In this document: positions 1 to 3,000 of the stretch, piece by piece
How the letters are laid out: each line of letters begins with the position of its first letter
How positions within the stretch are numbered: the stretch's first letter is position 1
IMG/VR virus record: IMGVR_UViG_2740892526_000019
Origin: a virus
Lineage: Duplodnaviria > Heunggongvirae > Uroviricota > Caudoviricetes
Reading direction: 5' to 3' (one strand)
Length of the DNA: 10,894 bases
Position numbers: made by a program

Positions 1-3000
1 ATGAGCAGAGCACTTAACAAACTGAGCGATACACAGCTGAGGAAAATCAACGGCACACCCGCCCAAAAAACAGCCTTTCTTAATGACGGTGGAAACCTGA
101 GCGTCAGGCATTCAACCAGTGGCCTTTTAACCTGGTATTTCACTTACAGGGCCGGAACGGGAAGGGGGGCACCACCGGAACGCATTAAGCTGGGAAATTA
201 TCCTGATCTGAGCCTGAAATCAGCCAGGGAAAAAGCCGCCCAGTGTCGCGCATGGCTGGCAGAGGGGAAAAATCCACGTCATGAGCTTAATTACACCGTA
301 CAGGAAGCGTTAAAGCCGGTAACGGTTGGCGATGCGCTCACCTACTGGCTTGAGTCGTACGCAAAGGAAAACCGCGTGGATTATGCCGCCCTGAAAAAGC
401 GCCTTAATAATCACGTAATACAGCACATTGGTGCTATGCCGCTGGATAAATGCGAGCTACGGCACTGGCTGGCCTGTTTTGACCAGGTGGCAAAGCGAAC
501 GCCTGTTACTGCCGGATTCTTGCTACAGACGTGCAAACAGGCGCTTAAGTTCTGCCGGAGGCGGCGCTATGCAATCAGCAACGTTCTTGATGATATGAGT
601 GTGGCGGACGTTGGGAAAAAACCGGATATAAGCGAGCGTGTCTTAAGCACCAAAGAACTGGGCGAATTATTGCAGGCACTGGACAAAAAAATATTCTCCC
701 CCTACTACATCGCGTTAATCCGCCTCCTGATTGTGTTCGGATGCCGGACGGTAGAACTGAGGTTATCGGAGATCAGCGAGTGGGATTTTACCGAAATGCT
801 CTGGACCGTGCCGAAAGAACACAGCAAAACGAAGGTGGCAATATTCCGGCCCATACCGGAAGCAATACTGCCGTTCGTCACGCAGCTGGTGGAGCAGAAC
901 AGGCACACGGGTTTATTGCTGGGGGAAGTGAAACAGGAAACAAGCGTGTCGCAGTACGGCAGATTAGCGCATAGGAGGCTAAATCACCCTCACTGGTCAC
1001 TACATGACATCCGGCGCACCTTTACAACGATGCTGAACGATTTAGGCGTGGATCCTCACGTCGTGGAGCAGCTTACAGGCCACCAGATGCCAGGAATGCA
1101 GCGAGTTTATAATCATTCCCGTTATCTGGATGCTAAACGCAATGCGCTGGATATGTGGACGGAGCGGTTAGGGATACTGGCGGGAACACATGAAAACGTA
1201 ACCACGCTACCAGTAGCCAGAAGAAAATAATTTTTTTCGTGTTTTTTCAGCATGCGCATACTGGATATGCGAACAGATACAACGTGCAGCAATGAGCAAC
1301 AATGTGGAACAACCACGAACAAGAGGCGAAAAAGCGTACGGATTTATAAGTAGCTGATTTTTAATGTGTTACTGGTTTTTTATACACTAGCGAATCACTC
1401 TTTAAAGAGCGAGAAAAAAGGCATGAAACAATATTTTATGCCTTTGTATTAACATGAATTTAAAAGATTTTATTCTTACTGTTTCATTTTCTGTAAATCA
1501 TACATCCTCAGTATTTGCCATTCATCACTCTAGCGGGAACAATACGACACAATAAGACACCTGATGACTCTTTAAGAAACGAAAGGGGGCAATAGTGTTA
1601 AGCACTGATCGGTTTATACGTGAAAAAGAATGCGAAAAACTAACCGGCCTTAGCCGTACGTGTCGCTACCGCCTGGAAAAGGCCGGACAATTCCCATCAC
1701 GTCGTAAACTTGGCGGTCGTTCCGTTGGCTGGTCTTTATCCGAGGTTCTGGCCTGGAAGGATAGCTGCAAGGCAGTTCATTAATCACGCTGGCGGCACGC
1801 AGCCGCCACACATCAATCATCTGAACACAGAGCTATAACCATGAAGATTGAATATACGCCAGAACGTGGGCGGGGATTCGTTCGCCCTGGTGAAACTGAA
1901 AAACAACAAAATTGGGGTTTTTCAGGTATAAAAAAAGCGGCCCCGAAATGGAGCCGCCTTTCTGAACAGATAACCCGCTGCGCCGTTTGTGTGTGTGATC
2001 CCAAACATAAGCACGGGGATGATAGCCGCTATCAGGCTGGTGGGCAATGCAATCAGTCTGGTTCAGTTCGTTGCCATACCTGCAATGAGCGCTTTTCCCT
2101 GTACTCTTTAAGGAATTGCTCAAGGGCAAAAGCACATGGTGCGAATCTTTCTGATTCATGCTCTATCTTTCTGCGCCGTCTTTTCCGTGCCGGTGATAAT
2201 GTTTTGGTCAATTCTTTATCGGTCATTGTGTTGTCCTGCATAGCAATGCGCCGTAATACCTCACACCACGGCGCTGATAGTTTTTATCCTTTGGGTTCTA
2301 TACCGCGCCGCTTTAGTTCAGTACGCCCCAACTCTTTAAGCCAGTTGGCTAGGCTTATGCCGTCGCTCTGTGCTTCTTTATCGAATTGCTCTTTTAGCTC
2401 TGGAGAAATTCGCATTCTGAATTGTGGGGATTGCCCGTCCCCTTTAGGGCTTTTATCGCGTTTGATTGTTGACAAGTGGTCACCTATTGAATTAGCCTTT
2501 CTATTGTTAGGTGGTCACCTTAACACAAGAGCACTTAAAAAAGCAAAGCCCCGCAAGTGTCATTACCACTCGCAGGGCTTCTAACCAACAACGTAAACTA
2601 GGAGCCGTTATGGTTGCTGTAAATCATATACCACACCTTGTACACACACAAACGGCCTTTGTGTGGCGTTTTCTGGCACTGAGTGCCGGAGAATCTCAAA
2701 TCATCCACGTAACCGCCTGGACGGAACGCGAAGCGCGTAGCCGTTGCCCGTCAGGTTGTGTTGCTGTATTTGCCGCCCGTATTCGTCAGGGGGTGTGCCA
2801 TGCTTAAAACCTTCCGTGTATTTGCCAGCGCTGTTAACCCACTAGGCCACACAATTGGTATCGCTCAGAATGTGAAGGCTGTTAATGTTCAGACGGCTAT
2901 TGCTGCGGTGAGAAGCGAATCATCAGAATATGGCTTATCACAAGTCATTATTTCAGCAGTGTATGAATTAAAAGAGGTGCATTAATGAAGGAAATTACAT

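Follow-up and report, generated by a model that had tools for sequence, protein, structure and literature searches.

The window, meaning the whole 10,894-nt stretch of IMGVR_UViG_2740892526_000019 analysed here, is by its gene organisation an E. coli phage satellite of the capsid-forming type of phage-inducible chromosomal island (PICI). Its genes run in the order int, alpA, a leftward unit of two small genes, a rightward operon (Icd-like gene, DUF4222 gene, primase) and capsid genes. The first gene of the leftward unit, hereafter RHH, encodes a predicted repressor of the ribbon-helix-helix fold; the second is hereafter called orf62. A preliminary description of this DNA had proposed that RHH is an autoregulated repressor with two operators on the divergent promoter of the replication operon. 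The comparisons reported here strongly support that proposal through the Arc-like character of the protein, the covariation of the sites with its residues, and the conservation of the predicted promoters. The control region contains the following features.

2284-2475, minus strand: RHH, predicted repressor gene (Arc/Mnt-like), 63 aa, TTG start
2474-2485: predicted operator O1 (AAGTGGTCACCT), one mismatch (AAGTG...) to AGGTG-N2-CACCT
2509-2520: predicted operator O2 (AGGTGGTCACCT), a perfect 5-2-5 palindrome AGGTG-N2-CACCT
2469-2498, plus strand: predicted rightward promoter PR; -35 TTGACA at 2469-2474, 18-nt spacer, -10 TAGCCT at 2493-2498
2517-2525, minus strand: predicted leftward RHH promoter PL; extended -10 TGtTAAGGT (reverse complement)
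2610-2807, plus strand: Icd-like gene, first of the rightward operon, 65 aa (NCBIfam phage_ICD_like, E=6e-18)

Paired palindromes in the control region

The 10.9-kb window has two exact copies of the decamer GTGGTCACCT and no more, at 2476-2485 and 2511-2520, each on the plus strand. The preliminary description had recognised the two copies but had placed them 34 bp apart; the distance is 35 bp from start to start, with 25 bp between the copies. The direct repeat grows to 17 nt (TTGACAAGTGGTCACCT at 2469-2485 and TTGTTAGGTGGTCACCT at 2504-2520, 82% identity). One copy abuts a consensus TTGACA (2469-2474), as had been claimed, and the single base A2475 parts the two. The sites are best read as 12-bp palindromes of the form AGGTG-N2-CACCT, with a free centre and with centres 35 bp apart. 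This retains the idea of paired sites and corrects their earlier form, AGGT-N-ACCT. No third site within one mismatch of AGGTG-N2-CACCT is present in the window.

O1 lies in the PR spacer beside the -35 hexamer. Its reverse complement reads AGGTGACCAC-TTG, and the RHH Shine-Dalgarno sequence, AGGTG on the minus strand, falls inside O1 just before the TTG start, as the preliminary description had also seen. O2 follows closely on the predicted PR start, covering about +3 to +17 as counted from it, and overlaps both the -10 and the start of predicted PL.

A repeat of this kind might be a product of chance or a duplication remnant without function, and the statistics of the single window leave room for that. 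When the 134-bp intergenic region was shuffled 20,000 times, an exact direct 10-mer repeat arose in 94 cases (~0.5%, or p ~0.005), and in a weak, pattern-specific shuffle test 22 of 200 shuffles reached the observed count. We judge the comparative evidence to be much stronger than this statistic. Paired sites are kept in 28 of 28 distinct locus types despite changes in their sequence, and in a Pasteurella satellite as well, so that a functionless repeat seems extremely improbable.

An Arc-like protein and covariation with its predicted operators

Sequence profiles and a structural model identify the 63-aa product as an Arc-like ribbon-helix-helix protein. It matches PHROG 228, 'Arc-like repressor' (E=5e-7), and its family profile, set against the PDB, scores best with P22 Arc (E=1e-3) and with Mnt (E=0.03). 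The AlphaFold2 (AF2) model, with a mean pLDDT of 83, has an extended segment (residues 17-24) and two helices (25-37 and 42-56). The top Foldseek matches in the PDB are all P22 Arc (TM up to 0.89, rmsd 1.2 Å over 44 residues), and NikA, AmrZ and CopG come after it. Residues Q18, R20 and R22 of the window protein align with the base-contacting Q9, N11 and R13 of Arc. An RHH dimer would be expected to read bases with its paired beta-strands and to bind the near-identical palindromes O1 and O2.

In each of 28 comparisons the RHH frame shows stronger conservation than the antisense frame that overlaps it, and no break in the open reading frame (ORF) is seen in the 78 homologous loci. Many Enterobacterales have homologues; among 50,697 phage records, only 5 carry one, and these are mostly small satellite-like records.

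Scanning IMG/VR with the RHH protein gave 78 loci whose homologues are 62-98% identical; for the comparison all were turned to the orientation of the window. All 78 follow one constant plan: TTGACA, a 10-12-bp site directly after it, TAnnnT, a second copy of the site, and TGnTAnnnT on the minus strand. Within a locus, O1 and O2 agree at 9-10 of 10 positions, and do so in each of the 28 distinct combinations, whereas sites from loci that differ at residue 18 or 20 match at a mean of 6.5 of 10. R22 is invariant, and residues 18 and 20 change with the operator, as follows.

Residues 18/20 Q/R or Q/K: operator AGGTG-NN-CACCT
Residues 18/20 P/H: operator AGGTGTACACCT
Residues 18/20 A/Q: operator AGGTACRCACCT
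Residues 18/20 T/Q: operator TACGTACGTA
Residues 18/20 M/N: operator AGGTCTATACC
Residues 18/20 I/S: operator GGTCCATAC

Among close relatives of the Q/R and Q/K types the arms of the palindrome are fixed and the central dinucleotide is GT, AC or GC; because it varies in this way, the centre is presumably not read by the protein. One operator type is present with two unrelated alpA alleles, and the sites therefore do not track AlpA. We regard this covariation as the main evidence that the RHH protein, and not AlpA, would bind O1 and O2.

The palindromes might instead be bound by AlpA, by a helper-phage protein or by a host protein, with the RHH target lying elsewhere. The binding sites of AlpA in E. 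coli PICIs are not known, and binding by RHH is itself predicted from sequence, which gives this idea some footing. It is nevertheless very improbable indeed, given that the operator follows RHH residues 18 and 20 and is shared across unrelated alpA alleles. Nor is a candidate motif upstream of alpA conserved: this putative AlpA box, CTGTAAATCATA (1491-1502 upstream of alpA; 2617-2628 at the Icd-like start), scored the same as its permuted control over 44 loci (means 6.36 and 6.36), and the idea was rejected.

To the right of RHH, 69 of the 78 loci have an operon with a primase or a helicase, and up to 62 of the 78 have an alpA-like gene (43 matches to one allele, 19 to the other). The layout also reaches more distant elements. 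In a Pasteurella multocida satellite, the RHH protein is 45% identical to that of the window, the sites are GGTATATACC and GGTAATTACC, and they are accompanied by TTGACA-17-TATAGT, by TGtTATGGT on the minus strand, and by the same terminator followed by CTAACCAAC. E. coli islands with other small leftward genes and other palindromes keep the layout too; the O157:H7 and O26 islands carry GGTAATTACC twice. In the E. coli Res13 island (2340-2480) the slot holds a leftward YlcI/YnfO-family gene, and GTGTTTCATG inverted repeats with three GTGTTTCA half-sites are found around a TTGACG-17-TAACAT promoter. This suggests that the position is a general one for a 'small divergent repressor' and could be taken by more than one protein family.

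Predicted overlapping promoters under constraint

The -35 hexamer of PR doubles as coding sequence, TTGACA being the reverse complement of RHH codons 1-3 (Met/Leu-Ser-Thr). Serine has six codons. Ser2 is encoded by TCA in 80 of 80 loci, and the wobble base of codon 3, which lies just outside the hexamer, takes all four values across loci. Since the Ser2 codon is fixed while the adjacent wobble base varies, selection acts on TTGACA as DNA. The wider pattern TTGACA-17/18-TAnnnT is found in 52 of 52 distinct RHH-family loci, with 12 different hexamers. On the minus strand, TGnTAnnnT adjoins O2 at the same position in all 52, and does so again in the Pasteurella satellite.

From these elements, PR would start at about 2503-2506 and PL at about 2510. 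The two predicted promoters overlap face to face, with starts ~5 bp apart. This amends the preliminary description: the predicted promoters do not stand back to back.

The leftward unit and its resemblance to a toxin-antitoxin pair

The remainder of the leftward unit comprises a second gene and a terminator.

2053-2241, minus strand: orf62, second leftward gene in the window allele (PHROG 21027, E=1.6e-15)
1929-1963, minus strand: intrinsic terminator ending the RHH-orf62 unit (-21.7 kcal/mol, z=-4.2, then seven U)

On the plus strand the 1929-1963 sequence folds with only -13.8 kcal/mol, and transcription from alpA may be able to pass it, as the terminator is weaker in that direction.

Homologues of the RHH protein are named 'HicB family antitoxin' by NCBI and JGI, there is a weak Pfam HicB match (20.4 bits, under the 21-bit cut-off), and in the window allele the small gene orf62 sits behind RHH. 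RHH could on these grounds be the antitoxin of a type II pair with orf62, in which case the palindromes would autoregulate the pair only and their overlap with PR would be incidental. The related loci speak otherwise. An orf62 homologue follows the RHH gene in just 17 of 79 loci and is absent from 62, and orf62 matches neither HicA nor another toxin family, nor anything in PADLOC. The RHH fold takes up the whole 63-aa protein; there is no space left for the N-terminal RNase H-like domain of HicB, and that domain is absent. The rightward -35 and -10 are kept under codon-level constraint in every locus, and the operators are kept in loci without orf62, contrary to what an antitoxin pair would predict. 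With the partner gene missing from most loci, we rejected the toxin-antitoxin reading and consider it very unlikely.

A terminator and a candidate antisense RNA

Between O2 and the rightward operon lie two further features.

2537-2581, minus strand: intrinsic terminator, 15-bp stem (2581-2545) then GCTTTTTT
2538-2616, minus strand: candidate antisense RNA (~77 nt) whose complement takes in the leader, the Shine-Dalgarno sequence (2600-2604) and the ATG (2610) of the Icd-like gene

The hairpin is better by 3-13 kcal/mol as a minus-strand RNA in 49 of 49 distinct alleles, because its G.U pairs turn into C.A mismatches on the plus strand. Compensatory changes affect 7 of 9 terminator stem pairs. 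No minus-strand gene lies to the right of this terminator. A promoter-like TTGTGT-17-TATGAT does, on the minus strand at 2651-2623, just inside the Icd-like gene; most leader variants have TATGAT or TGnTATGAT a short way into the first gene, and the others have weaker TAnnnT hexamers. The candidate RNA has a fold z of -4.7, with its anti-Shine-Dalgarno sequence in the 5' hairpin. An antisense RNA of ~77 nt, lying across the Icd-like gene's ribosome site, probably ends at this terminator.

An Rfam scan of the whole window at E<=1 found no C4, isrK, Esr41, CI-like or other family; the sole match, a sub-threshold rnk-leader, is caused by the terminator. Esr41 belongs to a different island, SpLE1. 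A plus-strand hairpin at 2645-2665 inside the Icd-like coding sequence, followed by GCGTTTTCTG, looked like a terminator in the scan, but its fold z against shuffles was -0.7 and it is probably coding sequence only.

A predicted repression switch

RHH probably represses the rightward Icd-like/primase operon together with its own overlapping promoter. This proposal builds on the fold, the covariation of operators with residues, the constraint on the promoter and the strand of the terminator, all of which emerge from sequence and comparison. Occupation of O1 and O2 would block PR and leave the replication operon silent. With O2 over the extended -10 and start of PL, and O1 over the RHH ribosome-site region, the protein would also limit its own synthesis. 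The overlap of PR and PL suggests that RNA polymerase at one promoter would exclude it from the other, as at Pant and Pmnt of P22. At a further level, the candidate ~77-nt antisense RNA arising inside the Icd-like gene may base-pair with its leader, its Shine-Dalgarno sequence and its start codon, much as sar does in P22.

Several points weigh against this proposal. AlpA over-expression alone induces EcCICFT073 (PMC6092414), and a means by which AlpA could override the repressor was looked for and not found. The PR -10 (TAGCCT) is weak, and a simple consensus promoter scan called neither PR nor PL; PR was missed because of that weak -10. The related loci are non-independent samples that represent only ~8-10 operator types, and NCBI and JGI label the homologues as antitoxins. 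Finally, a covariance model of the terminator scored only 11 bits against the P22 sar terminator (E=0.27).

AlpA is the known activator of Gram-negative PICIs, necessary for their induction and sufficient when over-expressed (PMC6092414). Because over-expression suffices, any repressor must be overridable by AlpA. The capsid-forming PICI paper reports AlpA dependence only. RHH might then bind O1 and O2 as a transient feedback or timing regulator, in the manner of Arc, or mainly favour its own promoter by shutting PR, in the manner of Mnt at Pmnt, with lack of AlpA alone keeping the island quiescent. Overlapping promoters permit indirect activation, as in P22, and the TTG start and weak signals suggest low RHH levels. 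We consider this unlikely. Arc is co-transcribed with its target, whereas RHH is divergent from it and has its own predicted promoter and terminator, which is the maintenance layout of Mnt, Stl and Rpr; and the operators come in many specificities, a diversity typical of immunity determinants.

Repression of the replication operon by RHH would constitute a layer of control beyond AlpA, which the preliminary description had suggested and which the comparison of loci supports; the literature calls a global repressor of Gram-negative PICIs 'unclear' (PMC6092414). We found no description of the module in these elements, in full-text literature searches that reached only a minority of subscription journals, so one may exist. 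The results suggest a well-known kind of switch in elements for which no repressor has been described. The field views Gram-negative PICIs as switched on by AlpA, and this module offers a concrete candidate for a repressor that has been missing: it is conserved, lies exactly between alpA and the replication operon, has several operator specificities, and occurs in many Enterobacterales and in Pasteurella. With the predicted sites, recognition residues, starts and candidate RNA all defined, the hypothesis is directly testable.

Comparison with known regulatory systems

By analogy, the module resembles P22 immI (Mnt/Arc with sar). There, too, a small RHH gene (mnt) is divergent, with a small ORF and a terminator behind it; TTGACA, an Arc operator in the spacer, a -10 and the Mnt operator AGGTCCACGGTGGACCT (AGGT...ACCT) at the start site succeed one another; and the promoters Pant and Pmnt overlap. 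In the window the corresponding traits are present by position, namely the divergent RHH gene, O1 in the PR spacer and O2 at the PR and PL starts. Arc and Mnt are the best sequence matches of the window protein, and Arc is the best in structure. P22 also has the 70-nt antisense RNA sar, whose promoter lies just inside ant and which covers the ant ribosome site; its counterpart here is a candidate. sar ends in a GAAGCCCUG...GGGGCUU hairpin, and the stems are alike here, but with the non-significant covariance score given above and no blastn match of 2460-2640 to the 50,697 phage records, we rejected homology and treat the likeness as analogy only.

The two systems also differ. Arc and Mnt serve two operators in P22, where a single protein would serve both here; the P22 sites are 21 and 17 bp long, against 12 bp. 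In P22 the starts diverge and are ~37 bp apart, whereas here PL lies to the right of PR and the starts face each other at ~5 bp. The target in P22 is the antirepressor gene ant and here the Icd-like/replication operon, in which no Ant or Bro domain was found.

In P1 immI, an Icd-family gene stands first in an operon controlled by a small antisense-acting RNA at its ribosome site. The window shares the Icd-family first gene and, as a candidate, the small antisense RNA. The c4 RNA of P1, however, shares the strand of its target, is encoded upstream of it and is cut from the transcript by processing; P1 has no RHH repressor, and the window has no Rfam C4 match.

[quoted passage not shown] Those two repressors are larger, belong to the helix-turn-helix class without sequence or fold kinship to RHH and are lifted by specific helper-phage proteins, and the window island has AlpA in addition. 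With RHH antitoxins and plasmid copy-control repressors of the HicB, ParD and CopG type, the protein shares its fold, palindromes over its own promoter and, as predicted here, autoregulation. It differs from them in having no conserved toxin partner and in having operators also on a second, divergent promoter, that of the replication operon.

P4 likewise depends as a satellite on phages of enterobacteria, and its order is an alpA homologue (vis), then a control region and then the primase operon; it too has an RNA-based layer and a long ORF over its control elements (PMC10111431). Its immunity (PLE/PLL, CI RNA, eta), however, acts by RNA-mediated premature termination only, without a protein repressor, and its CI RNA is co-directional with the target, whereas the candidate RNA here is antisense. 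No C4, isrK or CI-like RNA was detected in the window with Rfam. Some islands may combine a protein repressor with P4-type RNA immunity. At 2900-3200 of an island of E. coli CFSAN027346, which has the RHH switch, an Ash/CI-like stretch (Pfam Phage_ASH) is inserted between two Icd-like genes. A later survey (PMC10111431) treats the interval between alpA and the replication genes as a dynamic 'Bro zone' in which Bro proteins and CI-like RNAs are found.

An overlying plus-strand frame and possible immunity

A plus-strand open frame spans 1784-2584, with an ATG at 1841 and 247 codons. It is antisense to orf62 and RHH, crosses the operators and the terminator, and ends just before the Icd-like Shine-Dalgarno sequence. 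It is the alpA frame, from which a single TAA separates it. The ORF at 1841-2584 has no family match. RefSeq, in E. coli 2013C-3342, annotates a 247-aa plus-strand 'hypothetical protein' in place of the two leftward genes. Across loci, the plus-strand frame over the RHH gene has a median open span of 670 nt and reaches at least 600 nt in 39 of 70 distinct loci (56%); control antisense frames over operon genes have a median of 291 nt and reach that length in 5%. The ORF may be a read-through ORF like eta of P4, or an annotation artefact. In P4, translation of eta lets transcripts from an upstream activated promoter escape immunity (PMC10111431).

It is possible, if doubtful, that Gram-negative PICIs, capsid-forming ones included, have true immunity made up of RHH, in at least 8 operator specificities, and a sar-like RNA in a module like P22 immI, which would hold the replication operon off at its proximal promoter and which helper-induced AlpA would bypass as in P4. 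Transcripts from the alpA promoter would then run on across the switch, with translation of the plus-strand ORF 1841-2584 shielding them as eta does. If this were so, repressor alleles would define immunity or incompatibility groups of satellites. The module bears on immunity between satellites and on the design of PICI-based delivery vehicles, and also on annotation, where RefSeq calls the 247-aa plus-strand ORF at this place or names the protein a HicB antitoxin.

Two other repeats came to light in this interval. A 15-nt perfect inverted repeat, GCCGTTTGTGTGTGT (1982-1996) and ACACACACAAACGGC (2642-2656), 645 nt apart, was considered as an antiterminator pairing and rejected as a general feature; only islands nearly identical to this one have it, and its sequence is a GT run of low complexity. 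There is also a direct repeat of 15 nt with 14 identical positions, TTTCTGTAAATCATA (1488-1502, upstream of the alpA promoter) and TTGCTGTAAATCATA (2614-2628, at the start of the Icd-like gene); examined as a possible AlpA box, it proved not to be conserved in other loci.

Other features of the island

The remaining annotated genes of the window are listed here.

1-1230: integrase
1595-1783, plus strand: alpA (Pfam Phage_AlpA, E=5e-17), known activator/excisionase-type regulator, convergent with the RHH unit
3414-3713, plus strand: DUF4222 gene (Pfam), preceded by small ORFs that follow the Icd-like gene
3710-5842, plus strand: DUF927 primase (Pfam)

After the primase come genes for SSB, a PerC-like protein, capsid, protease and portal. 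A 601-nt query (window positions 2250-2850) is 100% identical to an island beside roxA/pepT in E. coli 2013C-3342. RefSeq flags three genes of that island (integrase, DUF927 primase, PerC-like) as carrying a frameshift or an internal stop; in the window the integrase and primase ORFs are intact.

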